Shown one piece after another: positions 5,688-61,476 of a stretch of 64,000 nucleotides of DNA (within the stretch, counting starts at the first letter, position 1; each line of letters begins with the position of its first letter). Source of the DNA: an uncultured virus (IMG/VR IMGVR_UViG_3300029305_005254) (taxonomy: Duplodnaviria; Heunggongvirae; Uroviricota; Caudoviricetes). Below the pieces are notes generated by a model. That model was given only the letters and a program-made list of their open reading frames with translations. It was not told the origin of the DNA and made no database searches. Position numbers and translations under genes: made by a program. The stretch is from the IMG/VR virus record IMGVR_UViG_3300029305_005254; one strand, given 5' to 3'.

Positions 5688-6035
5688 CTAAATCCTGAAT
5701 ACTAAAACACCTTTTTCTCTAAATATAGGGAAACATTCCAATACAGTGGATAACATCTTTTTATAGAGTTCGCTCTCTATAGGGAAGAAAAACTCTTCAT
5801 ACTGCCTATCCGTACTTTTCTTAGTAGGTAATATTAAATTTTTACCTTCATTTAAACCTTCTATCTCTTGATAAATATCCTGCTTGCTAGGTAAAACTAA
5901 ATAAAACCCCTTCTCATTATTTTTATATAACTTGATTTTATTTAATTTTAAACTATCTTCAAAAATAATGCTACATACTGCTAAAGATTTTTCTTTTCTG
6001 CTAAATTCCTCAAAAATTATCTTAGTTATATTCAT
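5688..6035 (-). CDS. SpoVG-like nucleic-acid-binding protein
   Basis: LAVCSIIFEDSLKLNKIKL...GFYLVLPSK...FFFPI matches the SpoVG pattern. Confidence 0.7.
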   Translation of the reverse strand: MNITKIIFEEFSRKEKSLAVCSIIFEDSLKLNKIKLYKNNEKGFYLVLPSKQDIYQEIEGLNEGKNLILPTKKSTDRQYEEFFFPIESELYKKMLSTVLECFPIFREKGVLVFRI

Positions 6036-6047
6036 TATTTTACCCTC

Positions 6048-7004
6048 CTATACATACAACTTTCCAAACTTCTTATATATCTTACCTAAAGCGACTGCCT
6101 TATCTATATCCTTCTTTTTATAATACTTAAGTACATATGAGACTTCAGCACCTTGATTTGCTTTTATGAAATCCCTTATATTCGTAGGTACTACCACAAC
6201 TTCTTCCTTTTTAGATTCTAACTCATCAATACTGCTTGGTATAGATTCTGTAAACTCATCAAAAGGGGGTAACTCTTCTTCTATTGTATCTTCTACAACG
6301 TCATCCTCAAATGTAAAATCTTCAAGAGGAAAATCTTCACTACTCTCGTCAATTAGCTTCTCAGGTTTTACCCATTCGTCTATAAAGATTCCATAAGGAA
6401 CAGTATCTCTCATCACCAATTTAGAACCTATATCTCGCTTCTCTGACTTTTTAAATATCTCATCAAACCTAATAAGATTCTCCTTTATATGTTTTCTCCA
6501 AGTATCTATAAAAATACCATTGCTTGTGTAATCTTTTAAACAAGGTTGCCACTCATCTATAAAGATACCATGCACTATTTCTATTGCACTTTGTTGTGTA
6601 GGTTTATCATTCTCTGGTTTAGCTATATTTTGTACTAAATTTAAAAATGTACTTGGTTTAAAAGATTCATTAACATCCTCGTTGTAAGAAACACTTTCCA
6701 TTTCTAATGAAACATTTTCATTTTCTAAATTATCTTCCTCTAAAAACCTAAGTAAATCTTCTATTTCTAATTCATTATTTTGATTTTCTAAATCTTTAAT
6801 TTCAAATAAAGAATTTTCTGAAATTATATCATCACCATATAACTCTTCCCTTTCTATATTTAATTGTTTTATCTCATCTCTCATAAATTGATTGAAAAAA
6901 GTATTATATAAGGTATCATAAGACAAATTTTTGCCTTCAGAAGATACCCTCATATAATACTTCATATTAAGAATTGCTGTCTCTATACTTCCTTCAATTT
7001 TCAT
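6048..7004 (-). CDS. Acidic hypothetical protein with GIFIDxW repeats and a basic C-terminal domain
   Basis: Three GIFID(E/T)W motifs; C-terminus is possibly a winged helix. Confidence 0.7.
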   Translation of the reverse strand: MKIEGSIETAILNMKYYMRVSSEGKNLSYDTLYNTFFNQFMRDEIKQLNIEREELYGDDIISENSLFEIKDLENQNNELEIEDLLRFLEEDNLENENVSLEMESVSYNEDVNESFKPSTFLNLVQNIAKPENDKPTQQSAIEIVHGIFIDEWQPCLKDYTSNGIFIDTWRKHIKENLIRFDEIFKKSEKRDIGSKLVMRDTVPYGIFIDEWVKPEKLIDESSEDFPLEDFTFEDDVVEDTIEEELPPFDEFTESIPSSIDELESKKEEVVVVPTNIRDFIKANQGAEVSYVLKYYKKKDIDKAVALGKIYKKFGKLYV

Positions 7005-15348: not shown

Positions 15349-16437
15349 TTACTCATCTAAATTTATTTCGTCATCCCAATTAAAATCTTCACCTAAATCT
15401 CCTATATCTGGATATACAGACTGCTTACTTAGTTTTCTTCCTTGCTGTTTTTGTATCTCCACTCTTCTTTCTTCTAAAGCTCTTTCTTCCCGTTTTTCCT
15501 TTAGTGTTTTACCTAATGTTTCTACCTCTCCATTAGCCTTTTCCAACCTGATAGGAACAATACCTGAACTTAGCTTAGAATCAAAGGAATTAAGCATTGC
15601 AAAAACTGCACTAAACTCTTTAAGATTAAATACAGATTTCGGTAGTTCTCGTAACTCCTCTTCATTAAGTAACTGATAACTTCTGTAATTTGCTTGCATA
15701 AAACAATTAAGTATAGATTTAATAGTGTTCCAAGCAACCCTGTCACTGCCTTTCCATAAGAACACATATGCATCATAAGTTGTTACCCTTTTAGACATTT
15801 GGTCTTTCTGATAACTGTATATATCTGTTAATAAATCCCTCATATCAGGGTTACTTACATTATTTAAAGACTCAAAACTTGCATCTAGTCTTTCATCATT
15901 ACCTATTACATCCATATAATCTACGTGACACATTTGTATATTACTTGAACCACATATATTATATGCGTCTGCTATAGCTTCGAAATGTTCATGCTCAGCA
16001 TCATTATACTTTCCTAGAATTACATCTTTATTTAACTTTACTATAATACCACTCTTACCATTTCTAAATCTACAAATATATGGATATTGATTAGATATGT
16101 CATAAATACCCCATATTTCTCTTATGTTTAATTTATAGTCGTTATCCTTTATTGTGATAGCTTCTGATCTAACATTACCTTCCTTTAATAGAAAAAACCT
16201 TACTATGAAAATAGTGAAATATATAATCACCACACCTATAGCAAAATTAGTTAAGAAAAATCCTCTCTTGCTAAAAATAGTACCTATACCTATTATAAAA
16301 CCTATTATCATTATAACCACAGACCATATTTTAGTAGTACTTACTTTATCTCTTCTCCCTCCTGAGTAATCAAAAGTTAAAGGGAGAATTAGAGTAGTTT
16401 GACCTTTCCTTGGTCTCATTCCTGATATATCTGACAT
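15349..16437 (-). CDS. Two-TM transfer-region protein (VirB3/PrgI/TcpE-like position)
   Basis: Two N-terminal TM helices plus a cytoplasmic domain; start moved to the ATG at 16437 on RBS spacing. Confidence 0.5.
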   Translation of the reverse strand: MSDISGMRPRKGQTTLILPLTFDYSGGRRDKVSTTKIWSVVIMIIGFIIGIGTIFSKRGFFLTNFAIGVVIIYFTIFIVRFFLLKEGNVRSEAITIKDNDYKLNIREIWGIYDISNQYPYICRFRNGKSGIIVKLNKDVILGKYNDAEHEHFEAIADAYNICGSSNIQMCHVDYMDVIGNDERLDASFESLNNVSNPDMRDLLTDIYSYQKDQMSKRVTTYDAYVFLWKGSDRVAWNTIKSILNCFMQANYRSYQLLNEEELRELPKSVFNLKEFSAVFAMLNSFDSKLSSGIVPIRLEKANGEVETLGKTLKEKREERALEERRVEIQKQQGRKLSKQSVYPDIGDLGEDFNWDDEINLDE

Positions 16438-25870: not shown

Positions 25871-27151
25871 TTATTTTTCTACTTTTTCTAGGTTAAAGAA
25901 ATCTGCTAAATCATTAACAGAAACCTCCTGCATCTCAGACTCAATAGATTTCTCCCCTTCCTTAAGTTTAAATAATTCTAAATTTTTAAGGTTATCATTT
26001 CTCATTAAACGCTCATCTTCTACAGTAATAACGTCTTCCTTTATAACTGTAGTAGATGAATCTTCTACAGATTTTCTACAATACATGAAAGAGAGTAAAT
26101 TAGCTTCTACATTACCCTGTAACATATGTTTTAATTGACCTAAAATAACACTTATCTGTTCTGGGTTAAATCTCTTAAAAAGCTTTAAATAAGATTGTAT
26201 CTCTTCTACCGATAAACCTTCCACATCTACACTATTAACAACATATAACCCACGCACAGTAAAATTTATTAAAGTATTTACAAACTGTTTAAAGTCAAAT
26301 TGCATTTTTATCTTATAAAGCACATTAACATACTCTACATAGTTCTCTGTACAATAAGCTTCATAGAAATCAAATATTATGTTATCTGATACCTGTTTAA
26401 ATTCCGTACTAACATTAACTGCAGATGCATCTCCCCTAGTATTTAAAACAGTTTCAAGATTGTTTAAAGAATCTCTAACAACATTATCTGACCTAGCAGA
26501 AATCATTCTCAACCCTGCTAAATCATAATTCTTATCTTCATTAAGACATACCCTTTGTAATAAATCTACTATATCTTTTGTTCTAGGCTTTGTTACCCTT
26601 AATTTAAGTTGACATCTATTTTTAATTGTGTCTAATAAGTTCTCTGGGTTAGTAGTACATATAATTATTAAAACTCCTTCAGGTGGTTCTTCAAAAGACT
26701 TTAACAATCTTCCCATAGCTCCTCCTGACAACAAATGAGCCTCGTCTATAATGTATACCTTCCAATCACAACTCATAGGTGGGTATTCCATACTACTTAA
26801 CATGGAATCCATATCCTTCTTTCCTGAACTATCAGATGCATCTATCTCATAAATATCTGGCAACATCTCAGCATTACCTGTTGTAATATACTCATTAAAG
26901 AATTGGCAAGTAGCACATTCATTACATGCACTCCCATCTTCTTGCCTGTCTTCACAACAATACTCTTTTGCTAATATTCGTGCTAAAGTAGTCTTACCAC
27001 AACCACTTGAACCCTCTAAAAGAATAGTTTGTGGTTTTTTACCCATTAAAGAACGTCTTACTGTCTCTTTTATATCTTCATTACCTATGTACCCTGCTAG
27101 GCTTGTAGGTCTATATTTTCTTGCAAAACTTTTATTGTCCTCTTGTACCAT
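25871..27151 (-). CDS. dnaX: DNA polymerase III gamma/tau clamp-loader subunit
   Basis: ARKYRP, GSSGCGKTT, four-Cys zinc module, IIDEAH, EEPP, NRC; start moved to 27151 (GGAGG 8 nt upstream). Confidence 0.9.
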   Translation of the reverse strand: MVQEDNKSFARKYRPTSLAGYIGNEDIKETVRRSLMGKKPQTILLEGSSGCGKTTLARILAKEYCCEDRQEDGSACNECATCQFFNEYITTGNAEMLPDIYEIDASDSSGKKDMDSMLSSMEYPPMSCDWKVYIIDEAHLLSGGAMGRLLKSFEEPPEGVLIIICTTNPENLLDTIKNRCQLKLRVTKPRTKDIVDLLQRVCLNEDKNYDLAGLRMISARSDNVVRDSLNNLETVLNTRGDASAVNVSTEFKQVSDNIIFDFYEAYCTENYVEYVNVLYKIKMQFDFKQFVNTLINFTVRGLYVVNSVDVEGLSVEEIQSYLKLFKRFNPEQISVILGQLKHMLQGNVEANLLSFMYCRKSVEDSSTTVIKEDVITVEDERLMRNDNLKNLELFKLKEGEKSIESEMQEVSVNDLADFFNLEKVEK

Positions 27152-27177
27152 ATTATAAACCTCCTGTATTTTATATA

Positions 27178-27206
27178 ATTTTACCATATCTTATATAATA
27201 ATACAA
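27178..27206 (-). promoter_or_regulatory. SigA-type promoter for the dnaX/transfer operon
   Basis: TTGTAT-17-(TGG)TAAAAT. Confidence 0.65.
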
Positions 27207-27284: not shown

Positions 27285-28076
27285 TTAAGCCTTCTTGCTC
27301 ATAGCAATCTGTAAGAATGCTGCTGCACCTGCGTTTCTCTTCTCAGCTGCTGAAGCAGAACCACCTGCTCTTACTGCTGTAGAAACATAATCCTTGCAAA
27401 GTGGCTGGAACTTCTCGAAACCTGCAAGTACCTTTCTGTGCTTTCTCTTAGCCTTAGTAACTGGGTCCTCTGAAGTAGTGAACTCAAGTACTGGGATGAT
27501 AGCAACGTCCTTAATAGAACCTGTAGTAGCTCTTAAAGCGATAGATGGGATAGCTGACTGTGAAAGAGTCTTAGCTACTGCACCATTACCTGCTACCTTT
27601 CTATTAGTTGCGTAAGAACAAGTTACAGGAATCTGTCCACCTGTTGCCTTACCATTGAACTCCTCTCTTGAGATAAGAAGTCCTGTCTCGAACTTAGTAA
27701 GATCGAATGTCTCACCAGCCTTAACCTTTCTAGTAGCTGATGGATCACCTGTGTAAGACATAAGATTCTTCTTGAAATCCTCGCCTGGCTTAACATCAGG
27801 AATGTCAAGATCTACATCTGCAACAAATCTGTAACCTACGATGATTGGATCAACCTTCTTGCCCTTTGTTCCATCTGGCTTATCGAAATAAGTAACATCA
27901 TCCTGTGATGGGTCACCAAGTGGTGCTACGAACTTAAGCTTATCAGAAAGCTTACCAAGATTCTCCTGGTTTACTGGTGCTACAGTCTGCTCAGCCTGAA
28001 CTACTGCGTTTGTCTTAGTTGCTACTTCCTCTGCTGGTGCTGCTGCACCATTTTTTCCTTTTACTGTTAATGGCAT
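27285..28076 (-). CDS. Hypothetical, probably abundant, Ala/Lys-rich protein (monocistronic)
   Basis: Own promoter and terminator; strong RBS; visibly higher GC with AAG and C-ending codons. Confidence 0.8.
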   Translation of the reverse strand: MPLTVKGKNGAAAPAEEVATKTNAVVQAEQTVAPVNQENLGKLSDKLKFVAPLGDPSQDDVTYFDKPDGTKGKKVDPIIVGYRFVADVDLDIPDVKPGEDFKKNLMSYTGDPSATRKVKAGETFDLTKFETGLLISREEFNGKATGGQIPVTCSYATNRKVAGNGAVAKTLSQSAIPSIALRATTGSIKDVAIIPVLEFTTSEDPVTKAKRKHRKVLAGFEKFQPLCKDYVSTAVRAGGSASAAEKRNAGAAAFLQIAMSKKA

Positions 28077-28151
28077 ATCTTTATCCTCCTTGTATTAAAA
28101 ATTTTTTCTAACCGAGTGGCTAATGCCTACCACCCCGTTGACTATGAACAT

Positions 28152-28180
28152 ATATTAGCATAACAAAATCCAAAAAGCAA
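28152..28180 (-). promoter_or_regulatory. SigA-type promoter followed by a 5' UTR hairpin (28111-28140)
   Basis: TTGCTT-17-(TGC)TAATAT; AACGGGGTGG/CCACTCGGTT imperfect stem. Confidence 0.5.
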
Positions 28181-28353
28181 CTCCAAATTAACAAAAATTA
28201 CCCTAAAAACTACATTTTTACACTCTGCACAAATATTTAGCTGAAATACTGCGGTTATATTGTACAAACTGCACAAAAAATCAAGCTAAATTCTATATCA
28301 AAGGTGCTATAATATAATCTCTTAGAAATCCTTCTTAATTATTTATATACTTC

Positions 28354-43418: not shown

Positions 43419-44408
43419 TTACATCTCCATACCCATAATATAATTAAAAGCTTTATCAGCCTGTGATACTATGTATATGAATTCCTTACCAAAATCTTTT
43501 ATTCTCTTCTTCCAAGCACTTACATAAGCAATATTATTCTGGTAAGACTTTGTTTCACTAGTTACAAAATTGTGTATACCACATTCTGCACAACAAAGAC
43601 TAGCTGTAATCTCTGCTATACATTCTTCTACTGCGTACACTTCACTATCTTTACCAGTCTTCCCCTCTACACCTTCGTGAGTTATACCTACTCTATTTAA
43701 TCTAAAACTAGCTCCTGTACTATGAGCAATTTCATGGAATGCTGTTGAAAACCACTCTTCCTCTGAACGAGTATAAGGATTTAATTGTATAGTATCTAAC
43801 ATTGGTACATAACAAGGTACTCCTGGATACTCTTTATTAACCTTTACACCTGAGAAGTCTATATAATTATCAAAAACCTCTTGAGGTTTAGATAAAGTTA
43901 TTTCTACTTCACCTGTTTCTATTCTACTAGGCAACATCTCACCTTTACTATTCTTGAAATGTTGTCTTTCAGCCACATTAGTATATCTTAATATTTTTCT
44001 TGTTTTATAAAAACTATCCCCAGTTCTATAATATGCCCAACCTTCGGCATACCCCAAATAACCGTCTTTGTTTATATCTTTGCCTTCATCAATCTTACTA
44101 ACAACCTCGTCAAAGGAACAATCTTTTTTATCTTCTTTGTAAAAGATAACTGGTATCCAAACTATACCTTTCTGGAACATATAGTCAGTTCCGTGAGTTT
44201 TGTTGTACTCTCTAATCTGGTTTTCAGTCATATACTCACCAAATTCAAGCATAAGTCTGTTTATACCCCTATAAGGGGTCTTAGTAAAATAGTTAAATGC
44301 ATTGTAACACTGATAAGGTCTCTGCCAAGGTAAAGACTCATTCTTTTCTACCTCTTTTAGAAACTTATCTACTATTATATCGGTTACTGTTCTCTTTTGT
44401 TCTGACAT
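43419..44408 (-). CDS. ardC: ArdC-like antirestriction ssDNA-binding protein with zincin-like domain
   Basis: LPWQRP, YRGINRL, FHEIAHSTG..RLNR, YAVEECIAE, YVSAW. Confidence 0.85.
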   Translation of the reverse strand: MSEQKRTVTDIIVDKFLKEVEKNESLPWQRPYQCYNAFNYFTKTPYRGINRLMLEFGEYMTENQIREYNKTHGTDYMFQKGIVWIPVIFYKEDKKDCSFDEVVSKIDEGKDINKDGYLGYAEGWAYYRTGDSFYKTRKILRYTNVAERQHFKNSKGEMLPSRIETGEVEITLSKPQEVFDNYIDFSGVKVNKEYPGVPCYVPMLDTIQLNPYTRSEEEWFSTAFHEIAHSTGASFRLNRVGITHEGVEGKTGKDSEVYAVEECIAEITASLCCAECGIHNFVTSETKSYQNNIAYVSAWKKRIKDFGKEFIYIVSQADKAFNYIMGMEM

Positions 44409-44776: not shown

Positions 44777-45718
44777 CTAAGCTTTCTTCCTATCACTAAT
44801 ATAAACTCCTGTAGATAATATCCTCTTGGTAGCTGCTGGATGTCGTAATTTTCTTATTGCCTTGTTTTCCAACTGTCTAACTCTTTCACGAGTTAAACCC
44901 ATCTTTTTACCTACACATTCAAGAGTCTCTCCGTGATAAAATCTTCGTATAATAACAAAACGCTCTTTTTCAGTTAATGTTCTTTCTATTTCATTTCTTA
45001 AACCTCTATAAATACATAACTCTATAACTTCACTCTCAACATTGTTATCCGATGATATAATATCCTCTAACTCCATTGAAGAATCGTCATCTTCATTTAT
45101 AGCTCTATTAAGAGATACTGGAGAGTATGTAGACATATAACAGTTTCTTGTATAAGATTCCAATCCAATCTCTTTACACTTAGCATCTACTTCCTCATCA
45201 GTAGGCTTGCACATATTCTCCCTCTCGTACTCACTTACCCACCTATTTAACTTCTTTATACTCTCATTTACATGTACTGGTATCCTAATTAAACCTGAAT
45301 TATCTATAGCTCGTCTAATAGCTTGCCTTACCCAAAAATAGGCATAAGTAGAGAACTTTACACCTTTATCTAAAGAAAAAGACTCTGTTGCTCTTATTAA
45401 CCCTATTGAACCTTCTTGTATAAGGTCTTCAAAATCTAAACCATAATTTACATACTTCTTAGCAATATACACAACTAAACGAAGATTTTTCTCTATTAAC
45501 TCATTTCTAGCAGACTCATCTCCATTCTGTAACCTTTCTACAACAAGCTTCTCCTCTTCAATTGATAATAAAGGGTGACTCTGTAGTTCTCTATAATATT
45601 GATTTAAAGAACTAATAAACTCTACATCCTCAATACCCTTCATTTCTTCCTCTATTTCTAATTCATCTATACTTTCTGATTCTTCCGATGTAATAATACT
45701 CTCTTTTAATACATCCAT
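44777..45718 (-). CDS. RpoD/SigA-like sigma-70 factor
   Basis: [53 protein letters not shown]. Confidence 0.92.
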
Positions 45719-50910: not shown

Positions 50911-51348
50911 TTATATATTTATATTTAAAGATGTTTGTTCCTTAATCAAAATTACACTATGTCTAACTTCTTGATTAGGTACATCTTTTGAGTATAAGAT
51001 AGTTGTTGAATCATCTTCTTGCATAAGAGCTGTACTATCTGATTCAACCTGCATAAAACCTGTAGAGTCGTTATTTAATATGTAAGTATTATCTTTTTGT
51101 ACCTCCTCTTTAATTTCAAACTCCTTTATAGGTAATTCTATAATAGAACCTGAATCTGAATCTATAAACAGGTTATTTGTTGTATTCGACTTGGATAAAC
51201 CTCTTAAATACTTTATCTGCTTTTCAGCATTTTTACCATTAACTTCTCCAATAAGATAAGGTACTCTGAATATTATCATTAAAATAATACCTATGAATAT
51301 TGAAACTATTCCTGATATTAATAATACCAACCATAATGTCTTTAACAT
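50911..51348 (-). CDS. Membrane protein with a Thr-repeat cytoplasmic tail
   Basis: N-terminal TM; DSTGFM, DSTALM, DSTTIL. Confidence 0.65.
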   Translation of the reverse strand: MLKTLWLVLLISGIVSIFIGIILMIIFRVPYLIGEVNGKNAEKQIKYLRGLSKSNTTNNLFIDSDSGSIIELPIKEFEIKEEVQKDNTYILNNDSTGFMQVESDSTALMQEDDSTTILYSKDVPNQEVRHSVILIKEQTSLNINI

Positions 51349-53018
51349 TAATTAACACCCCCTTGTTCATATATTGAGTTTATCTTAGGCTCTAAATTAT
51401 CTACTAAACCTTTTAACTCATTATATTTTAAGGAAGAAACTTCCGTATTTGGAGAGTAGTTATCTAAATAATTTTGTAAATATTCATACTCACTTAAAAC
51501 TTCATTATAAGTAATACCTTCCAATTTTAAATTGTACCCATAGGTGTCTATACACCTAGCTATGTATAAATTGATCTGTAAGCTTAATAACTCTCCTGAT
51601 TCAACTTTCTTAGCTTCTAACAAATTGTACCAATAATCTCTATACATACCAACATCCTCAGCCTCTGCTATGGAAGATAAGATATCTCTATTAAAAGTAC
51701 CTAATCTGTAATAAACATTGGACAATTCAACCTCATAACCTGATTTACTTGCATCTTCAAACCACTTAATTGAAGTTATAATACCTTCATTATCCGTTGA
51801 ACCTTCATAATAAAACCAATATAATTTTCCCATAGAGTAAGCTAACTCTCCATAATTATTCTTCTTTTTAAAAGAATTTATATTTGGATTTATATAACTA
51901 AGTAATATCTCTTCTTCCTCTTTAGAGAATACTCCATCAGTTTTTAAAGAGTTAATATATTCTATATAAAGAGATATTTCTGATAAAGGTTTAACTTTAA
52001 ATACCTCTTCATAATCAGCACTCTTACCACTCTGTTGAGCTATTGAAATAAGATTTTCATATCTCTCACTTTGTTGATTGTTGTACAAAGTAAGAGGTAT
52101 GAAACTTAAACAAATACTAATTACCCCTAAGATTAAGGGAAGTATAGCCAACCTAATCTTTCTCTTGATACGGTTAATATGCATTACATCAAATAATTTA
52201 TAGTTCTTTAAGGCATACATTAACTCCTCACAAGACTGATAACGCATATTTGGGTCTGGCTGAATACACTTTGTTATAATAGCTTCAACACCTGATGATA
52301 AATCCGGTGCTAAATCTTTTATAGGTCGTAACTTATCCTTCGGTACTTGAGCTGGGTTTATACCCGTTAACATAAAATACATTGTTTTACCAATAGCATA
52401 AATATCACTTCTTAAGTCACAAGGCATACCTCTCTTACTTTGCTCTGGGGCTGCATAACCCTTAGTACCTAAGTTTTCTGTGATAATCTGACCTTCTTCT
52501 CGGATAACAATACTTATTCCAAAATCAATTAACTTAATATTACCATCATTCTGAATCATAATGTTATCTGGTTTCATATCCCTGTAGAATATAGGATTAC
52601 TTCTATTATGTAGGTAAGCCATAACTCCAACCACTTGTAACATCCAATTCATAGCAAGGTCTTGATTTACTTTGCCATTCTTTGTTATGTATGTTTTCAT
52701 AGAGATACCATCTACATAATCCATTATTATAAAAATAGAATCTCCTTCTTCTTCAATAGTTGTAATTCTCGGTATGTTAGGGTGGTTTAAACCCTTCATA
52801 ATATTGGCTTCTTGTAACAGAGAATAATACTCTATCTGATTTCGACCTGCCTCTGACTTTCGTATCTCCTTAAGACACCACTGCTTATTTAGATTACTAT
52901 CTAATACCAAATATACATTAGACATACCCGCTGCATGTATAACCTTAAGGATTTCATACCGACCATTAAGTATTTTGTCACCACAATTAAGTAAGCTCCT
53001 CTTAAGTTTATTAGACAT
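51348..53018 (-). CDS. Hanks-type Ser/Thr protein kinase with TM and extracellular helical domain
   Basis: LKEI, YRDMKPDNI, DFG, GTKGYAAPE, SDIYAIG. Confidence 0.92.
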   Translation of the reverse strand: MSNKLKRSLLNCGDKILNGRYEILKVIHAAGMSNVYLVLDSNLNKQWCLKEIRKSEAGRNQIEYYSLLQEANIMKGLNHPNIPRITTIEEEGDSIFIIMDYVDGISMKTYITKNGKVNQDLAMNWMLQVVGVMAYLHNRSNPIFYRDMKPDNIMIQNDGNIKLIDFGISIVIREEGQIITENLGTKGYAAPEQSKRGMPCDLRSDIYAIGKTMYFMLTGINPAQVPKDKLRPIKDLAPDLSSGVEAIITKCIQPDPNMRYQSCEELMYALKNYKLFDVMHINRIKRKIRLAILPLILGVISICLSFIPLTLYNNQQSERYENLISIAQQSGKSADYEEVFKVKPLSEISLYIEYINSLKTDGVFSKEEEEILLSYINPNINSFKKKNNYGELAYSMGKLYWFYYEGSTDNEGIITSIKWFEDASKSGYEVELSNVYYRLGTFNRDILSSIAEAEDVGMYRDYWYNLLEAKKVESGELLSLQINLYIARCIDTYGYNLKLEGITYNEVLSEYEYLQNYLDNYSPNTEVSSLKYNELKGLVDNLEPKINSIYEQGGVN

Positions 53019-53028
53019 TCTTACCCTC

Positions 53029-53709
53029 CTATACAGACAATATACTAACTGTTATATTATCTGATTCTCCTCTACTTATACAAGTATTTACAGCTTCTCT
53101 TAAATTACTTAAATTAAGCTGATACCCTGATTCTTCAAATTGATGCCAAAAACCATCTGAACTTAATAAAAAGAAATCCCCATTATTGTAAGTACCTTTA
53201 TATGTATCTATAAATGCATCTTTCTTTACACCTATACATCTTGTTAACTTACTTTTATACTTATTGTATAAATCTGGATTATCTTGTTTAGAGATATTGT
53301 ATTCTTTTACTACAGAATGGTCTTTTGTAACTTGATTGTAATAACCATTTGATATATGATAGCATCTAGAATCACCTATATGATATACAGTATATTCATT
53401 GTTACTGCAATATAAAATAGTGCAAGTAGTCCCCATCATAGCATCTAAACTGCTTAAATTTCTTATATTATCGTTAACAGTTTTTAAAACCTCTACCAAA
53501 TTAGAGTGGTCTAAGCCATTAATTATATTCTCTTTAACTGCTTCTACAACCAACTTACTAGCAAGACCACCATTATTGAGACCACCCATACCATCGCACA
53601 TACAAATAACTCCGGTTTCTACACCATCAATATTAAGTATGGCACTCCAAAAATTGTCTTGATTTTCTGTTCTTGTACTTCCTATATCTGTTAATGAATA
53701 TATCTCCAT
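53029..53709 (-). CDS. PP2C-family Ser/Thr phosphatase
   Basis: RTENQD, CDGMGG, GTT, HIGDSR, SSDGF, DNIT. Confidence 0.92.
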   Translation of the reverse strand: MEIYSLTDIGSTRTENQDNFWSAILNIDGVETGVICMCDGMGGLNNGGLASKLVVEAVKENIINGLDHSNLVEVLKTVNDNIRNLSSLDAMMGTTCTILYCSNNEYTVYHIGDSRCYHISNGYYNQVTKDHSVVKEYNISKQDNPDLYNKYKSKLTRCIGVKKDAFIDTYKGTYNNGDFFLLSSDGFWHQFEESGYQLNLSNLREAVNTCISRGESDNITVSILSV

Positions 53710-53715
53710 ATAAAG

Positions 53716-54399
53716 TTACCTCACAACAAACCTTTCATCTGCAAACTTAACTTCGTCACCAATATTTAACCTAACATCTACTTGAGGTGCTGCCTGTTTT
53801 CCATTAACATAAGTACCATTAGTAGAATTATTGTCTCTTACATACATAAAATCATTATACACATATACAAGGGCATGACATCTAGATATATTATGGTTAC
53901 CCTCTATAACATAATTAGCATCTTTTGCAGACCTACCTATTGTTACACCCATATTAGTAATTTGTACTGGTGTATTAGCTTTAATGTGGTATAATTGATG
54001 TAATTTAGTTAAACCTTCTATCTGCTCTGTTGTTAATACATCTGTACTATCCGAATAAATGTCCTGACTACTAACACTAGGAATATACTCTCCTCTAGAT
54101 AACTCTTGAGGGAATAAAAATCTAACATTAGTGCAGTCTATTACAACAGTCTTATCTACATAATATTGATTTAAAAAGTAGTAAAAATCAAATCCATAAT
54201 CATACTGACCTATTAAACACAAAAATTTACCTTCTGAATTCTTTAATATATTCGCTATGCTAGAACTATTGTAATTCTTCAATGTAGCTTCAAATACTTC
54301 TAATATAGTAGCTACATCTTCTTTAGATAAACTTTGAATAGGTTCATTAAAAGTACTGTATTCTTGATTTTGTAAATCAGTCTCTAATATAAAATACAT
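53716..54399 (-). CDS. FHA-domain protein
   Basis: IGRS, ISRCHA, DNNSTNGTYVNG. Confidence 0.88.
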   Translation of the reverse strand: MYFILETDLQNQEYSTFNEPIQSLSKEDVATILEVFEATLKNYNSSSIANILKNSEGKFLCLIGQYDYGFDFYYFLNQYYVDKTVVIDCTNVRFLFPQELSRGEYIPSVSSQDIYSDSTDVLTTEQIEGLTKLHQLYHIKANTPVQITNMGVTIGRSAKDANYVIEGNHNISRCHALVYVYNDFMYVRDNNSTNGTYVNGKQAAPQVDVRLNIGDEVKFADERFVVR

Positions 54400-54536: not shown

Positions 54537-55748
54537 CTATACTGGCTTCTTAAATATAAGAATATTCTCTTTCTTAAGCTCTCCTGCTGCCTGCTCCTTA
54601 GAACCTGCTCTTGCAGTTACCCCTAAGTACACAGTGTCATATAATGGCATTCCCTCTTCAGTAGATATTCTTATCCATTCATCTACATAAGCACACTCTC
54701 CGCCATCGCCTACCTTAAAATCAGCTATGTTTACTGCATAGTATCTGCCTGGCTTCAACATATAGAAAATATTCTTTATTGTTGCTCGTACATAACCTTC
54801 CAACCAATCCTCCAAAACTGGGAATTTATTGAAACATTGTGTTTCTTCATCTGAGTATATCTCAAGGTCAAAATAAGGAGGGCTGGAGAACGCAAAATCT
54901 ATGCTGTTCGCTGGTCCTCTAAAATCTTCACTACCACAACAATGCAACTCATAACTGTCTTCTCTGCCTGTAGCCTGTTCTATGTAATCACCTAACTCAT
55001 GTAAATGATACATTGTCTCAGTATTTGGGTCTGTACCTACATACTTGAAATTCTTCTTACTACTCAAGCAACCAAGAAGTCTTCCACCAAAGCCACAACA
55101 ATAATCATAAATAACTCCACCCTCTGGACAGAAACGCTCATACACTGCCTTAGCATTCATAGGTCTAAAGTTACTAGGTGCACTACCAACTAATCTTAAT
55201 CCACCCTCTACAGATGTAGGAACTGGACAACCATTCTTGTATGAGAAACAGAACTTTATAGCTCGTCTCAAGTAATCATCGTTATGAAACTTAGCATACA
55301 TTGTCTCAGCTCCGACCTTGTTTACATCGTGCTTAGATGGGGTATCAAATAAATTGGGAAATAAATATCTACATAAACCTGTACCAACTCCTGCACCACA
55401 ACTTATAGTGTCCCCATTAAACTTAGCTGTGTAATTAATACATTTCTCAACCTCATTAATGATACCCATTTGAGAAAAGTATTGAATAGGGAATAAATCA
55501 ACACTTCTATAGATTGCTAATACTTCATCAACCATAGCATCTTGTGCTTCTTTATCACCCTCAAGAGCCATATACTTGTCTGCTGTATACTCTTTAAGCT
55601 TATCTATAACCTCCTCGTACCCATTTGATTGGAAGTCAAACTCAAAAGGTTCAAACTTCCACTGGTGATACTCACCGTTATCTGCCTTTTTCTGTATCTC
55701 TTCAAAAGGCACTTCGTTCTCCATAGGTTCTGAAAACCAATTACTCAT
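54537..55748 (-). CDS. Orphan amino (N4-C/N6-A) DNA methyltransferase-like protein
   Basis: YDYCCGFGGR SAM-binding motif I followed by the FSSPPY catalytic motif IV. Confidence 0.8.
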   Translation of the reverse strand: MSNWFSEPMENEVPFEEIQKKADNGEYHQWKFEPFEFDFQSNGYEEVIDKLKEYTADKYMALEGDKEAQDAMVDEVLAIYRSVDLFPIQYFSQMGIINEVEKCINYTAKFNGDTISCGAGVGTGLCRYLFPNLFDTPSKHDVNKVGAETMYAKFHNDDYLRRAIKFCFSYKNGCPVPTSVEGGLRLVGSAPSNFRPMNAKAVYERFCPEGGVIYDYCCGFGGRLLGCLSSKKNFKYVGTDPNTETMYHLHELGDYIEQATGREDSYELHCCGSEDFRGPANSIDFAFSSPPYFDLEIYSDEETQCFNKFPVLEDWLEGYVRATIKNIFYMLKPGRYYAVNIADFKVGDGGECAYVDEWIRISTEEGMPLYDTVYLGVTARAGSKEQAAGELKKENILIFKKPV

Positions 55749-55782: not shown

Positions 55783-55811
55783 ATTATAACATTTATTAAA
55801 TAAAAAGGCAA
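55783..55811 (-). promoter_or_regulatory. SigA-type promoter of the methyltransferase, overlapping the upstream terminator
   Basis: TTGCCT-17-(TGT)TATAAT. Confidence 0.7.
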
Positions 55812-55874
55812 CTGCATCAAAATACAGTTGCCTTCTCTTAAACTATTTAAACAAGGATAAAGATAGTTTACCAT
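55801..55874 (-). ncRNA. Putative ~74-nt small RNA (seed hairpin plus terminator)
   Basis: Dedicated promoter; 8-bp stem with a 16-nt pyrimidine-rich loop; strong terminator; no RBS-led ORF. Confidence 0.6.
55802..55834 (-). terminator. Rho-independent terminator
   Basis: AAGGCAACTGTAT-TTTG-ATGCAGTTGCCTT followed by TTT. Confidence 0.8.
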
Positions 55875-55880
55875 GTATAT

Positions 55881-55909
55881 AATATACCACATATTACATA
55901 AAAAAGCAA
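55881..55909 (-). promoter_or_regulatory. SigA-type promoter of the putative sRNA
   Basis: TTGCTT-17-(TGG)TATATT. Confidence 0.65.
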
Positions 55910-55979
55910 TAACCAATCTTAATAAAATGCAACCTATTTTAATTACATACAACACTTAAAACAAACACTGACCGTATCC

Positions 55980-57515
55980 TTATTTAGGTTCTGCCTCTGA
56001 ATTAGTATCATAAAAAGTATCTACAACATTACCTGAAAGTACTCTAAACCAAACTGGTTCTACTTTTCTAGAGAAGTCCTGTCCCCATATCACATACTTT
56101 CTATCTAATTCTGTAGAGCTGTTCCAAGATTCTATATAACCTATCTCTCCAGGTGCTAAAGTAACAGTATCTACTAATCCATACATAGTACCTGTTCTTG
56201 AAGATAAATTAACATTTTTATCGCATAGAGCTGTATTATCTTTTACTGTAATAGTTTCTTTTGATAAATTCTCTACCTCTATTACATAATAACAATACTG
56301 TACATTAGATGAAACATCTATGCCTCTATTTCTTTCATCTTTACCTTCAAACCAAGCTATAGCATCTTCTGATACCCCGAACTCTCTTAAAGTAACCCTT
56401 ATTGGTAATTTTTCTTCTATTATATTACCATTATCATCTTTATACTCTACTAACTCTACAGTGATTACACCTGTATCTAATCCTGCTGGACTACTAAAAG
56501 AGCCATCTCCAATATTAGCTGAAATACCTGTTTGAATTATATTACCATTAGCATCTACTACAGTATACTCATTCTGTAAATAATAAGCACCACACCAAGT
56601 AAGACTTATAGTATCTTTAGAACTGTATTTAACAGGTTCTGTGACATCTTTCTTTACTTCCTCAGACATATTGCTCCACTCTTGCCATTCAAAAGTAGGT
56701 ATTAGTTCTACACCTGATAACTTAGCTGCAGATTCAGAAAACCTTACTAATAAATCATTAAAATCCTTACTGGAAAACAATTCTTTATCTATAAAGATAT
56801 CCTCATTTAAACCTACTGAGTAAGAACCATCTGCTAACTTTAATAAATCTGGAGTGTGTTCTACTGTTTTTACTGGAAGTTCTTCTATACTTAACATATA
56901 TTCACAAAATATGTTTACTAACTTATTCTCATAGTCTACACAACCAAAACTAACATCGTGGTTTACTAATATAGTTTTTAATAACTCTTCGTTTATTTCT
57001 ATGCTAGAATAATCTACATAACTTAAATATACTGATTCACCCTGTTCTATGTTTGATAATACCATCTCTGTACTATCTGTTTCAGGATTTATATAGTCGT
57101 TCCCATATATATTCTTTTGTACTACCTCTTGAGGTTTATATGAAACAGTTGAAAGCATTCTCTTTAAGAAATTAACCTTTAATTCACTGCCGTTAGCATA
57201 CTCAACTTCCATTGCAATATAACTACCATCTTGCAGGGAACTTATGGATTTTATATTATCTTCCCATACAGTTAAACAATATAAACCTGTTTTTTCTTCT
57301 GCAACCTTCATTTTATCTGGGTACTTTATCCACTTATTGTAGAGATTTACCCCTACTATACATAATATCATGGAGATAAATAAACCGATTACTGATGCTA
57401 CAACAACTCTCCCTGTAGATAAAGGACTATGTTTTCTTCTGTTTAATATTTTTTTATTGGTGGACACCCTTACTCCCCCTTTTTCTAAAAGTTCCTTTTT
57501 ACTCAATAATAACAC
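55980..57515 (-). CDS. Membrane-anchored exported hypothetical protein
   Basis: Single N-terminal TM; the start may be a downstream GTG (VSTNKK). Confidence 0.7.
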   Translation of the reverse strand: MLLLSKKELLEKGGVRVSTNKKILNRRKHSPLSTGRVVVASVIGLFISMILCIVGVNLYNKWIKYPDKMKVAEEKTGLYCLTVWEDNIKSISSLQDGSYIAMEVEYANGSELKVNFLKRMLSTVSYKPQEVVQKNIYGNDYINPETDSTEMVLSNIEQGESVYLSYVDYSSIEINEELLKTILVNHDVSFGCVDYENKLVNIFCEYMLSIEELPVKTVEHTPDLLKLADGSYSVGLNEDIFIDKELFSSKDFNDLLVRFSESAAKLSGVELIPTFEWQEWSNMSEEVKKDVTEPVKYSSKDTISLTWCGAYYLQNEYTVVDANGNIIQTGISANIGDGSFSSPAGLDTGVITVELVEYKDDNGNIIEEKLPIRVTLREFGVSEDAIAWFEGKDERNRGIDVSSNVQYCYYVIEVENLSKETITVKDNTALCDKNVNLSSRTGTMYGLVDTVTLAPGEIGYIESWNSSTELDRKYVIWGQDFSRKVEPVWFRVLSGNVVDTFYDTNSEAEPK

Positions 57516-57520
57516 CTACC

Positions 57521-58234
57521 TTAAAATGCATATTCATTACCCAATAATAAGTTTGCTAATAAATCTGCTGCATTTATATTTTCTTCTTCGCTCTCGCTAA
57601 AATCTTCTTCTACTACAACTGGAGTAGAGTCCTTAACAATGTTATCACCTTCAGTTGTAGCAACCTCTTCAAGAGGATTAAAATATTTATTCTCAGATTC
57701 AACCAAAGTAACAACTTTTACCTCTTCTTTCACTTCTTCAACCTTAGGTACTACTCTCTCTTCTACCTGTTGAACAACCTGATTAGAAACTGGTGGTAGT
57801 ATATTGGACTTACCTGACAGCATATCTTGTAGCATACTCATTATTTGCAAGTTCTGACTTCTTAAGTCGCTTATCTCATCCTTAAACTCCTTAATATACT
57901 CAGAATCTCGCATATAATCTTCTTCTGCTTTTTTAGCTTTTTCATTAAAATGATTATACGCATTTTCATTACTAGACTTAAGCTCACTGGTATAAACACC
58001 CATACTGAACAAAGAATCTTGCATAGAATTAAGAGCATCATCAAGCACATCTACAGATGCCTTGTGCATCTTACCTAAAGTACCTTCTGCGTATGAACGA
58101 ATATAATCGTCTTCTATGTACCCTTGTAATAATGTTGCTATTAACTTTGAAAAAGTTTTAGCCTTCTTATGAGGCTTTACAACCAACTCATTGACGCTCT
58201 CCTCAACGTCAACTAATATACTTGTACTTACCAT
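57521..58234 (-). CDS. Putative ribbon-helix-helix/coiled-coil protein (ParR-like adaptor candidate)
   Basis: N-terminal strand-helix-helix pattern, coiled coil and acidic tail; downstream of parM. Confidence 0.45.
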   Translation of the reverse strand: MVSTSILVDVEESVNELVVKPHKKAKTFSKLIATLLQGYIEDDYIRSYAEGTLGKMHKASVDVLDDALNSMQDSLFSMGVYTSELKSSNENAYNHFNEKAKKAEEDYMRDSEYIKEFKDEISDLRSQNLQIMSMLQDMLSGKSNILPPVSNQVVQQVEERVVPKVEEVKEEVKVVTLVESENKYFNPLEEVATTEGDNIVKDSTPVVVEEDFSESEEENINAADLLANLLLGNEYAF

Positions 58235-58249
58235 CCTTATCCTCCTTGT

Positions 58250-60214
58250 TTATAAAACGCTTATTTTGTGACAACTACAAGTTTTACTTGCTATATCGAA
58301 CAACTTTTGCATCTTATTGTTAAATTCAAAGTAATATATTGCACTGGAACTAGCATTGGAAAGACCTTTAATATTAGTTATTACAGACCTTGAACCTATT
58401 GCATTACCGTGTACATATATAGATGATTCACCTAAATCAGCAAATGACTCGTGAAGAATTCTACCTACCATATTAGATATATCACCACATATTACTACTA
58501 CTTTATAACCACTTTCTTCCAATTCATTCAATCTAGTAAACCAATCAATTGTAAGAAAATAACTATCATTTATATACCCTATTCCTGGTGAAAGTACAGA
58601 TACATTCTTTGCACAAGTATTTGAGAGATATCTCTGAACCCCTCCACCTTTTCTAAACCAATCCATTCCTGGGGTAACTTTTTCTATCTCAAATACATAG
58701 TCTATAGATGTCTCTGATACAACATCTACTACTAAATAGTTAGTGTCTTTATTACTTTTCAACTCAGCTAACACACTTTTATATAAACCTTTTCTACTCT
58801 CGGTACTACCTGCAAAAACAAATCTGATATTGTTATAGCTTCCTGTACTATTTTGTATTAACTTTATAGCCAAATTACCCTGAGGTAAAGCAAGACTTGA
58901 TATTTTACTGAAAGTTCCTTCCTGTAAAGCAAGATACTGCATTCTTATAGAATTTAAATCCGACATAAGAGCCTCTATATCTGTATCCCTACTTGTAGAC
59001 TTTTCAAGAACATTGAGTTTAGATTGCATTTCTATTTTCTCTTCATTCAATTCTAATATAGTTCTATCAGATTTCTCAAGCTCCTCGTTTAACTGAGCTA
59101 TATTACATTTTAAAGTGCTAATATCCTGTTCTAAACAATGTATAGTATTTTTATAACCATCAATACTAGACAACTCAGATTTTAAGGTAATTAACTCTGT
59201 TTCTAGTCTTATCTTCTCTTCTCCGGACTTAACTAACTCTGCCTTTAAATTATTTACCAAATCTGAATTTTGATTGTTGTTCTCTGAAAAAGTAGATAAC
59301 TGATTTTCTAAAGACTTTACTTCAGACTCTTTATTCAATAACTCAGCAGTCTTTACCTCTAAATCCCTTGTTAAATTAACAATTTGTTCTTTTAGACCTA
59401 AAAATCGACTTGCATCACAATTGAGATTTTCAATCTTACTAGAGAGTTCTAATATCTCATTTTTTAATGTAGATATTTCTCTCTCCTTACTTTTTAACAA
59501 ACCTGATTGCGTAGAATATTTGACCTGAAAATCTTTAAGCTCAGCACTAATCGAACTATAATCAACTAAAAGAGATTCTTTAGACTTTTCTAAATTCTGC
59601 AAAGAAATTTTCAATGAATCTCTTTCATTTTCTAAGATTTCCAATTTTTGATAGTGCTCTGAATTAATATCTGAAGTGTTACTTTTAAGTCTTAGAACTT
59701 CAGCCTTTAACTCTTCAACAACAGTATCATCTATATTACTACAAGAAACTGTCTCACATTCAAGATAAGACTCATACTCTTTTACTTGACAAGTGAGATT
59801 TTCTATAATATCTTCTTTATCTAAAAGGCGTCTTTCTAGCCTATCTATTTTCTCTATATATTCTGAGACATCTTCTGCCTCAACATTCAAATCATCTTCC
59901 TTATACTCTAAAGATAGATTATACTTATAATTAAGAAATTCTACTAATGAAACCTCATTAGAGAATAAATGAAATTTATTACTATCCTCTAATCTACCCT
60001 GCATATCTTTACATACGTCTAAAGATACAGAGTCTAATACAACTAAAACTGTTTCAACTGCACCATTACCTTTTGTGGATAAGTGTACTCTCTGTCTTAA
60101 GTTATCTTTATTTAATTCAACTAATTCAACTACTCCATCTCCAAATGCTATATTTAATGCACTTGTTAATATCTGTTTTGCTTCTAATGAAACTCCCGAA
60201 ATTAAAGCATTCAC
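58250..60214 (-). CDS. Long coiled-coil protein with a degenerate MinD/ParA-like C-terminal domain
   Basis: About 300-aa heptad region; FVFAG..., YLVVDV, YKVVVICGD; start moved to the GTG at 60214 (AGGGG RBS). Confidence 0.65.
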   Translation of the reverse strand: MNALISGVSLEAKQILTSALNIAFGDGVVELVELNKDNLRQRVHLSTKGNGAVETVLVVLDSVSLDVCKDMQGRLEDSNKFHLFSNEVSLVEFLNYKYNLSLEYKEDDLNVEAEDVSEYIEKIDRLERRLLDKEDIIENLTCQVKEYESYLECETVSCSNIDDTVVEELKAEVLRLKSNTSDINSEHYQKLEILENERDSLKISLQNLEKSKESLLVDYSSISAELKDFQVKYSTQSGLLKSKEREISTLKNEILELSSKIENLNCDASRFLGLKEQIVNLTRDLEVKTAELLNKESEVKSLENQLSTFSENNNQNSDLVNNLKAELVKSGEEKIRLETELITLKSELSSIDGYKNTIHCLEQDISTLKCNIAQLNEELEKSDRTILELNEEKIEMQSKLNVLEKSTSRDTDIEALMSDLNSIRMQYLALQEGTFSKISSLALPQGNLAIKLIQNSTGSYNNIRFVFAGSTESRKGLYKSVLAELKSNKDTNYLVVDVVSETSIDYVFEIEKVTPGMDWFRKGGGVQRYLSNTCAKNVSVLSPGIGYINDSYFLTIDWFTRLNELEESGYKVVVICGDISNMVGRILHESFADLGESSIYVHGNAIGSRSVITNIKGLSNASSSAIYYFEFNNKMQKLFDIASKTCSCHKISVL

Positions 60215-60241
60215 AAGGACATATCCCCTTTCTATACACCA

Positions 60242-60265
60242 AAGAGAAGGCTTTCGCCCTCTCTT
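60242..60265 (-). terminator. GAAA-tetraloop hairpin after parM (leaky terminator or 3' stabiliser)
   Basis: AAGAGAGGGC-GAAA-GCCTTCTCTT. Confidence 0.6.
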
Positions 60266-60279
60266 CAATGCATCTTATA

Positions 60280-61437
60280 TTACTCAGCTAAAATACTTGC
60301 ACCAATAATATTGAGTAGTCTTGGAGATACCTTCTGACCATCTATCTCAGGTAACTCAACAAGCTCAGTGTTTGGTGAAATCTCCTTCATAAAGGATACT
60401 ATGTAGTTAGCAGTAGGTTCAATACCATCTGAACCTTCAGCTCCTCCACCACATACAAGAATATTAGATATCATATCTACAGACATCATATTCTCCTCAA
60501 AGAACTGCTGTACTGCATCTACAAGCTGTCTAGAAACATCTGCCTTAGCTGCTGATATCTCCTCACGAATATCATATACCTTAGAACCACTCTTAATCTT
60601 TCCTACCTCGCAACCCTTTCTAATTGCACTGTCAGGTAAGTTAATGTTTTTAGCCTTAAGCATAGTTCTTACACGCTGATGAACATTGTTTCCACCAATT
60701 GTTCTTGTAAAACGTGAAGATGTAACGATAGACTGCCCCTTTGCCAATACAAAGTCTGTAGTTCCTGCACCAATATCAATAATCAATGTATAAGTCTCTG
60801 GGTCTGCAAGATATGCGTAACCTGATCTAACCTTTGACTTAGACTCCAAAAGAACTCCAATGTAGGCACAATAACCCTCTGGGTACACCTTTATACCATT
60901 TATTGTAATCTCTCTTGTAAGCTTTGGCATAATGAAATCAATCTCAGTTATACTTCTTGCAAGTTCTGCGAGAAGCTTTGCACCTGCATCAATATCCTCT
61001 GGTGGCAATAAAAGCACCAAATCCCAAGTAACATTGATAGACTCTAAATCTGAGTCTGTGAACTCTGCAACATCTTCATAACCTCTTCTGAAACCATTAA
61101 TAATAGCTAACTTAGATGCTAAAGAAGAATACTTCTTGCAAAGAGCTGTAGGTCTCATAGATAAAGAATCAAATTCTGCGTTAGAAATCTCTCCATTGCA
61201 ATATACAACATCTTTACCTTCATTGTTCTTACCCTTAAATATACAAGAATCTTCTTCTGTATAAATCTGGGAATTCAAGTACACCTGTACCTTCTCCTCT
61301 GGCATTGTACAATAACGATTGTCAAGCACAGAAGTCTTTTTTCTAGGCTTACCTTTAGCATTTACCCCATACTGAGTTGTTACTCTTGTCTGAGAGTTTC
61401 CTAAGTCAATGGTAAGCTTAGCTACTCCATCTACCAT
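60280..61437 (-). CDS. parM: ParM/StbA-like actin ATPase
   Basis: IDLGNSQT, VYPEG, IDIGAGTTD, LVCGGGA, NIIGA. Confidence 0.85.
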   Translation of the reverse strand: MVDGVAKLTIDLGNSQTRVTTQYGVNAKGKPRKKTSVLDNRYCTMPEEKVQVYLNSQIYTEEDSCIFKGKNNEGKDVVYCNGEISNAEFDSLSMRPTALCKKYSSLASKLAIINGFRRGYEDVAEFTDSDLESINVTWDLVLLLPPEDIDAGAKLLAELARSITEIDFIMPKLTREITINGIKVYPEGYCAYIGVLLESKSKVRSGYAYLADPETYTLIIDIGAGTTDFVLAKGQSIVTSSRFTRTIGGNNVHQRVRTMLKAKNINLPDSAIRKGCEVGKIKSGSKVYDIREEISAAKADVSRQLVDAVQQFFEENMMSVDMISNILVCGGGAEGSDGIEPTANYIVSFMKEISPNTELVELPEIDGQKVSPRLLNIIGASILAE

Positions 61438-61476
61438 CCTTGTTTACCTCCTAGTAGTATATTTATTTATATTTAT

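Follow-up and report, generated by a model that had tools for sequence, protein, structure and literature searches.

Small RNAs that come from mRNA 3′ ends and have an internal promoter of their own are a class known from enterobacteria, and the motifs of the RsaE/RoxS RNAs are C-rich (CCCC/UCCC). A Legionella conjugative element encodes an RNA that reportedly mimics a chromosomal small RNA and is said to require a dedicated chaperone. This RNA is reported to silence natural transformation (PMC6744872), and RsaE is described as highly conserved among Firmicutes (PMC6158497, PMC8216469). The conAn2 RNA of pLS20-type plasmids is described as a cis-acting stretch of 283-356 nucleotides (nt) behind conAn1, with 20-bp flanking inverted repeats and a GC-rich block and with no promoter-terminator pair of its own (PMC8191782). 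Here, a 64-kb stretch of DNA (the window) from the uncultured virus record IMGVR_UViG_3300029305_005254 was analyzed, which has 32% GC, carries all 58 of the open reading frames (ORFs) taken as genes (≥80 aa) on the minus strand, and is about 5% intergenic. Positions 55909-55798 of the minus strand are tentatively read as a self-contained gene for a ~75-nt non-coding RNA that would pair with ribosome-binding regions. The locus is probably that of a fast-evolving small RNA and ribosome-binding sites are its likely targets, while the specific regulon named in an original prediction from the letters of this DNA, i.e., an actin-like (ParM-type) gene and genes of 237 and 263 aa, is unproven.

The unit occupies the 231-nt intergenic region between the gene p511 and a methyltransferase-like gene, and its parts are the following.

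55980..57515, minus strand: p511, a 511-aa gene of unassigned family (an ORF with no Pfam, PHROG, NCBIfam or Atlas family), the final gene before the unit
55909-55881, minus strand: promoter P1, TTGCTT-17-TGgTATATT, with an extended -10 (from sequence)
55874, minus strand: putative transcription start, the A of AUGG, 7 nt past the -10 hexamer (placed by spacing)
55870-55839, minus strand: hairpin 1, UAAACUAU-CUUUAUCCUUGUUUAA-AUAGUUUA (from sequence and folding)
55852..55858, minus strand: the CU-rich core AUCCUUG in the loop, resembling an anti-Shine-Dalgarno (anti-SD) sequence, the proposed seed (from unpaired probability and motif enrichment in relatives)
55837-55798, minus strand: intrinsic terminator of A-tract, stem and U-tract, which also closes the upstream operon (from folding and a terminator scan)
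55811-55783, minus strand: promoter P2 of the methyltransferase-like gene, TTGCCT-17-TGtTATAAT (10 of 12 positions match, plus the TG extension)
54537..55748, minus strand: the downstream methyltransferase-like gene, 403 aa (phrog_498 DNA methyltransferase, E = 1.9e-12)

P1, the AUGG, the hairpin and the strong terminator are all present where the original prediction had placed them, and its statement that the methyltransferase-like gene has its own TTGCCT-17-TATAAT promoter is borne out by P2, the -35 hexamer of which sits within the 3′ arm of the terminator. P1 is located 3′ of the p511 stop codon, in the intergenic region, where a single terminator-like site is found and none precedes the hairpins after the p511 stop. 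As far as the sequence goes, a short non-coding transcript is bounded by its own promoter and a factor-independent terminator. The 8-bp, AU-rich stem of hairpin 1 (55870-55863 with 55846-55839) encloses a CU-rich loop of 16 nt, CUUUAUCCUUGUUUAA (55862-55847); the terminator stem is formed by GGCAACUG and CAGUUGCC (55832-55825 with 55814-55807), followed by the U-tract UUUUUAUUU (55806-55798). Four DNA runs (Logan contigs) carry the stretch unchanged, with zero variant letters, and the sequencing runs listed as containing it include no RNA run. An S-P-P-Y run, which we take to be a methyltransferase motif, is invariant in the alignment of the methyltransferase-like homologues.

The predicted fold of the 86-nt stretch has an energy of −26.2 kcal/mol (z = −5.07, equalled by 0 of 200 shuffles), and this strong z value is due to the terminator. 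The AUCCUUG core has a predicted mean unpaired probability of 0.84. No antiterminator alternative appears in the minimum-energy or centroid folds, with no dedicated search for alternative folds run. The credibility of P1 was judged from the distribution of its motif in the window. The minus strand has 20 copies of the extended -10 pattern TGnTATAnT, 8 of them intergenic, versus 1 intergenic copy in 21 on the plus strand. When combined with a properly spaced TTG -35, the pattern gives 18 minus-strand matches of which 7 are intergenic, P1 and P2 included. These counts support the view that P1 fits the element's own promoter type. An extended -10 followed by a terminator within 140 nt is found at only one intergenic place in the 64-kb window, i.e., the P1 unit.

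The loop was scored against the 58 translation starts of the window and 216 internal coding controls, using loop shuffles that were either plain or kept UCCUU (TCCTT) in place. The sites in question are the following.

61446-61436, minus strand: candidate target in the Shine-Dalgarno (SD)-to-AUG interval of the actin-like (ParM-type) gene, 11 nt, TAAACAAGGAT (−18.2 kcal/mol, rank 1 of 58)
58252-58243, minus strand: candidate target over the SD of the 237-aa gene, 10 nt (−16.9 kcal/mol, rank 2 of 58)
28087-28076, minus strand: candidate target from SD to AUG of the 263-aa gene, 12 nt, 3 of which pair with stem bases (−16.7 kcal/mol, rank 3 of 58)
11873-11864, minus strand: an equal 10-nt match within the coding sequence of a 697-aa gene (exact match)

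The claimed complementarities of 11, 10 and 12 nt are exact and are the three best of the 58 starts. Their summed duplex energy, −51.8 kcal/mol, was attained by 0 of the 600 plain shuffles and by 3 of the 600 core-keeping ones, i.e., in the shuffled-loop control, applied to the window, the named targets beat 600/600 and 597/600 shuffles, respectively. An energy of −16 kcal/mol or lower was found for 3 of the 58 starts versus 0 of the 216 internal controls, and the summed length of the three longest exact matches gave P = 0.0015 against plain shuffles and P = 0.025 against TCCTT-keeping ones (2000 each). The pairing is thus more than the anti-SD core alone would yield, with the cautions given below. 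The fourth match, which the original prediction had located near 11864 inside a coding sequence, was confirmed, and it shows that such complementarity also occurs outside translation starts. Three gene labels used in that prediction found no support. The 237-aa protein (ParR/RHH-like) and the 263-aa protein (abundant) match no family, and the 697-aa protein (virB4) has only a sub-threshold DUF87 match. The ParM-type and 237-aa sites lie in the operon whose 3′ end is the RNA (55798-61446), and the pairing could take place in trans or between parts of a single long mRNA. Upstream of the 263-aa gene, a 277-nt gap (28077-28353) contains a P1-like promoter, TTGCTT-17-TGcTAATAT (28180-28152), and a structured 5′ leader, with TGcTATAAT on the opposite strand at 28305-28313.

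Conservation was examined in 91 related loci gathered via the methyltransferase-like protein, each covering ~16 kb of its element; close relatives that differ slightly from the window are absent from this set. A BLAST search with the intergenic region as query returned no match in 84 loci, none of which contains the loop 16-mer either, and L040, L047, L002 and L006 each have a singleton unit. In viral contigs, the window's own methyltransferase peptides and the hairpin pattern found no match, and an alignment search there yielded seven loci, of which L087 was the useful one. The clade with 54% identity has no intergenic gap preceding the methyltransferase gene. The unit was also sought behind homologues of the upstream p511 as the anchor, the end of which is held by 40 loci. 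An automatic scan found the unit (promoter, short RNA and terminator) in 13 of these 40, and its presence follows the identity of p511 to the window: 13 of 16 loci at ≥41% versus 0 of 24 at ≤37.6%. The three loci at ≥41% that lack it are L073 (a partial match), L008 and L069. The layout after the p511 stop is a TTGnnn-17-TGnTAnnAT promoter, a short RNA, an intrinsic terminator, usually a second promoter, and the next gene, with 59-114 nt between the -10 and the U-tract.

In L047, the closest syntenic relative (RecJ-like 65%, ParM-like 59% and p511 50% identity), the unit sits between the same gene pair as in the window. Beyond the terminator, a second extended -10 is present in 9 of the 13 related loci as well as in the window, and the gene 3′ of the unit varies among loci, suggesting that the unit is not the leader of one particular gene. 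P1, P2 and the recurrence of the layout behind p511 homologues (13 of 40 related loci) support the original claim of a stand-alone unit rather than a mere leader. When 11 units are aligned, no column is invariant except the T.G of the -35 and the TG.TA...T of the extended -10, and the RNA bodies cannot be aligned; the promoter is thus retained, whereas the body varies. Such careful maintenance of a promoter just upstream of a terminator speaks for a role of the short transcript.

What the bodies have in common is a class of motif. The 13 loci comprise seven sequence types, which become ten with the window, L040 and L002 (the latter two lacking upstream context). An anti-SD-like stretch of ≥5 nt is present in 5 of the 10 types (P ~0.001) and one of ≥4 nt in 8 of the 10 (P ~0.002), where P is the simulated tail against random same-length, same-strand pieces, which predict about one such case; the types are related and so are not ten independent trials. 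The exact seed of the window is not kept in relatives, only the motif class. The CU stretch has a predicted unpaired probability of 0.55-0.84 in 6 of the 8 types that bear a CU motif, and the differing ACCC-type stretch of L047 has a value of 0.68. In the L004/L087 subfamily, a 17-nt CU block, GUUCUCCUAUUCUAUAA, and its 5′ partner are invariant, the ~40 nt enclosed by them diverge, and the terminator pairing is maintained via two compensatory pairs. In these two units (L004 7115-7221, L087 7113-7222), the CU-rich block finds its pairing partner in the 5′ end of the RNA, AUAGAAUAAGG, and with both arms invariant the anti-SD-like stretch there may be masked by its SD-like partner. The most window-like unit is that of L040, with AUGGUAA, UCCUU in a small loop, AAGAGA and then a terminator, an excess over chance not being demonstrable for this likeness. 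Rfam 15 gave no match in the window at the gathering score and only a tRNA in nine related loci; in a relaxed search, the best match in the window had E ≥ 0.5, L006, L040 and L002 had none, and L047 gave microRNA noise only. It is plausible that the anti-SD-like seed is the working part of the RNA.

Several results weigh against the small-RNA reading. Hairpin 1 alone folds with −4.2 kcal/mol (z = −0.43) and is matched by 57 of 200 shuffles, which makes it too weak to guarantee the stem-loop presentation of the seed that the original prediction assumed. Perfect 8-bp inverted repeats with a 3-20 nt spacer number 80 in the window versus ~38 in Markov resamples, with a chance rate of ~0.6 per kb. 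The hairpin was selected on account of its matches, and the pairing statistics are therefore post hoc. The 237-aa and 263-aa starts are nearly identical over ~18 nt, A[A/U]ACAAGGAGGAUAA[G/A]GAU (58235-58260 and 28074-28100), so that they amount to fewer than two independent matches and the three matches are not independent. AGGAGG precedes nearly all genes of the element, and any anti-SD-like sequence would pair with many starts. Because the RNA bodies cannot be aligned between relatives, their homology is weak, and because the four DNA runs are identical, they provide no covariation data on the window's own hairpin. Two of the ten types, L047 and L050, have no CU motif.

The target tests in relatives point in the same direction. 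Neither the 2 related parM starts nor the 11 related 237-aa starts examined contain the AAACAAGGA motif. In a cognate test, the RNA of each relative was scored against all starts in its own locus with 200 shuffles, and the pairing was at chance in 6 of 7 relatives (shuffles reaching the observed score: L047 129, L003 55, L035 29, L050 135, L009 56 and L006 29 of 200). It was borderline in L004 (13/200) and nominally significant only in the window (4/200). With target motifs peculiar to the window and pairing at chance level in the relatives, the comparative test does not support the regulon. Co-conservation of loop and targets, the comparison set as decisive beforehand, was not seen in related elements, and the regulon of the original prediction is left without backing from them. 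The methyltransferase start was also considered as a conserved target, since it is the top site by duplex energy in L003, L009 and L006, and was rejected, as it does not beat the shuffles under a stricter score and is not even the top scorer in L003 or L006. In L009, the unit is complementary over 7+10 nt with a small bulge (3990-4030 and 6745-6780) to the methyltransferase start 2.7 kb downstream. This duplex has −24.4 kcal/mol, the top value of 17 starts, and its stricter score is reached by 56 of 200 shuffles.

The main rival is a plain operon end, at which the upstream operon stops at the terminator, the next gene is transcribed from P2 and the short P1 transcript is a functionless by-product, with P1 perhaps kept for insulation or local DNA topology. 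A terminator would be needed here anyway, as no other exists between the p511 stop and the hairpins, and elsewhere in the window several intergenic regions have the same order of terminator and then promoter. In DNA of 32% GC, promoter-like words are common (7 found versus 13.2 expected in shuffles), and neither the chance-level hairpin 1 nor the unconserved RNA body speaks for a function. However, a functionless by-product does not sit well with a P1 whose -35 and extended -10 are invariant in 13 of the 16 closest relatives and always lie 59-114 nt before the terminator, with a CU-rich stretch that is enriched, mostly unpaired and, as a 17-nt block, invariant within a diverged body, or with a window loop that pairs with starts beyond the core-keeping shuffles. 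The operon-boundary explanation is considered doubtful.

The unit always immediately precedes the next gene, and no extended -10 is seen past the terminator in L002, L009/L010 and L050/L049, as would be expected of a cis-acting leader or attenuator. In such a case, a factor would stop or pass transcription from P1 or from the operon at the terminator and thereby dose the next gene of the co-directional array; conjugation operons of Gram-positive elements do use terminators with antitermination (PMC8191782). However, the presence of P2 in the window, the extended -10 past the terminator in 9 of 13 related loci and the varying downstream gene argue otherwise. The predicted structures show no evident antiterminator fold, the body is hypervariable in contrast to leaders that bind a ligand or protein, Rfam gives no cis-regulatory match, and the anatomy of conAn2 differs. 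Thus, a leader or attenuator is unlikely.

It is less probable still that the RNA acts on a protein, as a decoy or mimic, e.g., a sponge for an RNA-binding protein or a mimic disarming a host defence, which would vary as hosts differ. A conserved locus and promoter with a fast-changing body would suit this role, as would the anti-restriction-type neighbours (the orphan methyltransferase-like gene and an ArdC-like gene at 43419-44408) and the SpoVG homologue on the element (5688-6035). However, no likeness to any Rfam family was found, CRISPR repeats included (best, CRISPR-DR54 with 13.7 bits and E = 7.6), and the sole feature common to the bodies is anti-SD-like, pointing to mRNA starts. Very improbable is the proposal that the inverted repeat TAAACTAT-N16-ATAGTTTA acts as DNA, either as a regulator site for P1/P2 or as a partition or transfer site. 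This perfect 8-bp palindromic pair does lie between two promoters and beside a partition-type operon, yet its arms recur in no other intergenic region of the window, the relatives have no equivalent repeat, repeats of this kind arise by chance at ~0.6 per kb, and no relaxase family is among the matches of the 58 scanned ORFs.

Other candidates were tried and rejected. A small peptide or leaderless mRNA is contradicted by AUG-initiated peptides that are unrelated in six units compared by eye (31, 25, 7, 9, 6 and 20 aa) and by an AUG lying 5 to 19 nt past the -10, differing by unit. A plasmid copy-control countertranscript is contradicted by an RNA on the same strand as all 58 genes, with no opposite-strand promoter-like site in the gap; an RNA antitoxin (type I/III), by the absence of tandem repeats in the 75 nt, where the only ORF (58 aa, GTG, 55955-55779) has no SD; and a conAn2-type antitermination RNA (PMC8191782), by the absence of a ~300-nt region, 20-bp repeats, a GC-rich block and conAn1 from the 231-nt intergenic region.

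For the base-pairing small RNA, the following mechanism is proposed. Transcription from the host-type P1 would begin ~75 nt before the strong terminator, at which the upstream operon ends as well, and the same RNA would therefore be present in two forms, one a free small RNA and the other the 3′ end of the operon mRNA. The mostly unstructured body of the RNA would expose the CU-rich, anti-SD-like stretch (AUCCUUG and flanks), with which the RNA would most likely base-pair to the ribosome-binding regions of mRNAs and block the initiation of translation, by analogy with the C/U-rich small RNAs of Firmicutes. The best candidate sites in this element would be the ParM-type, 237-aa and 263-aa gene starts. 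The sequences themselves show the anatomy, a locus and promoter conserved in close relatives, the enriched CU motif and, within the window, a complementarity that exceeds chance; we infer that the RNA is produced, that it acts in trans and which mRNAs it would control. The regulon is a prediction within one element, with modest statistics and no support from relatives. A wider proposal, at present an unlikely one, is that the spot behind p511 is a dedicated, fast-evolving RNA locus of widespread ~170-kb gut elements, in which promoter and terminator are kept and the body is rewritten around an anti-SD-like core; if so, each lineage would own a private translational regulator. Under this proposal, the RNA may exert feedback on its own operon, since two of the three best sites lie there, and it may also serve as a lineage-specific incompatibility or anti-host RNA.

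Hardly any work has addressed small RNAs on the mobile elements of uncultured gut microbes, and this locus is a testable candidate with defined 5′ and 3′ ends, a seed and three reporter targets, and with position, promoter and terminator conserved across many metagenomic contigs. If the assignment is true, it would show that a large plasmid- or phage-like element tunes a partition-type operon or other genes post-transcriptionally and that regulators diversify quickly at a fixed locus. If it is not real, the case would show that anti-SD-like loops in AT-rich Firmicutes DNA give convincing-looking 'targets' and that core-preserving controls are needed.

We regard the carrier of the unit as a large element, plasmid- or phage-like, that belongs to gut Firmicutes. 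Its proteins in the window include an actin-like ParM-type protein, a RecJ-like DHH protein, FtsK/SpoIIIE-like and HerA-like ATPases, an ArdC-like protein, a Ser/Thr kinase with PP2C and FHA partners, and two proteins of >1600 aa. The Ser/Thr protein kinase (556 aa), PP2C phosphatase (226 aa) and FHA-domain protein (227 aa) are encoded by adjacent genes (51348-54399, minus strand) and form a complete phospho-signalling module immediately 3′ of the methyltransferase-like gene. Also borne by the element are a sigma-70 family factor (44777-45718), a DNA polymerase III clamp-loader subunit (25871-27187), the ArdC-like anti-restriction protein with a metallopeptidase domain (43419-44408) and the SpoVG homologue (5688-6035). 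None of the 58 scanned ORFs matches a PHROG structural-gene family, the single 'tail' match being a coiled coil; the window shows no capsid, portal or terminase family, and no relaxase family is among the ORF matches. IMG/VR classes some of the relatives as viral genomes.

The methyltransferase-like protein has 1445 homologues, the contigs of which are often 170-240 kb long; its closest relatives, in clusters P0001, P0002, P0004 and P0005, are 81-90% identical. The lengths of related contigs concentrate around 170 kb (169-173 kb for one protein cluster), pointing to complete elements of ~170 kb. In many relatives (L008-L010, L035, L047-L052, L069 and L073), a variable N-terminal extension precedes the methyltransferase core in fusion proteins of 640-700 aa, which match the 403-aa protein of the window only from residue ~114 or ~218 onward. 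The related element L050 carries a tRNA gene (15696-15769, 73.5 bits). Public plasmid records hold no similar sequence, and phage records match only over 239 nt within the methyltransferase-like coding sequence, at 68%. The element family is not clearly described in the available portions of PMC8530359 or PMC12934698.

Among the described systems, RNAs of the RsaE/RoxS type share with the unit a short length, an own promoter, an intrinsic terminator and an accessible pyrimidine-rich stretch complementary to the SD, and by analogy a block of translation initiation would be the expected effect here as well. Unlike RsaE, the unit is carried by a mobile element, has the motif UCCUU/CUCCU, shows no sequence or structure match to RsaE, and has a body that is not conserved even in close relatives. 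Like the small RNAs derived from mRNA 3′ ends, it uses the upstream operon's terminator, with no other one between the p511 stop and the unit; in contrast to them, its promoter is intergenic rather than within a coding sequence. The Legionella RNA offers a parallel of another kind, in that an element-borne RNA is proposed to control the translation of selected mRNAs by pairing. With conAn2, the unit has in common a non-coding intergenic position in a long co-directional array with many internal terminators on a Gram-positive mobile element; in contrast to conAn2, it is only ~75 nt long, starts from a promoter of its own and runs straight into a terminator. The unit is filed as a putative, previously unannotated base-pairing small RNA of the Firmicutes type on a mobile element.

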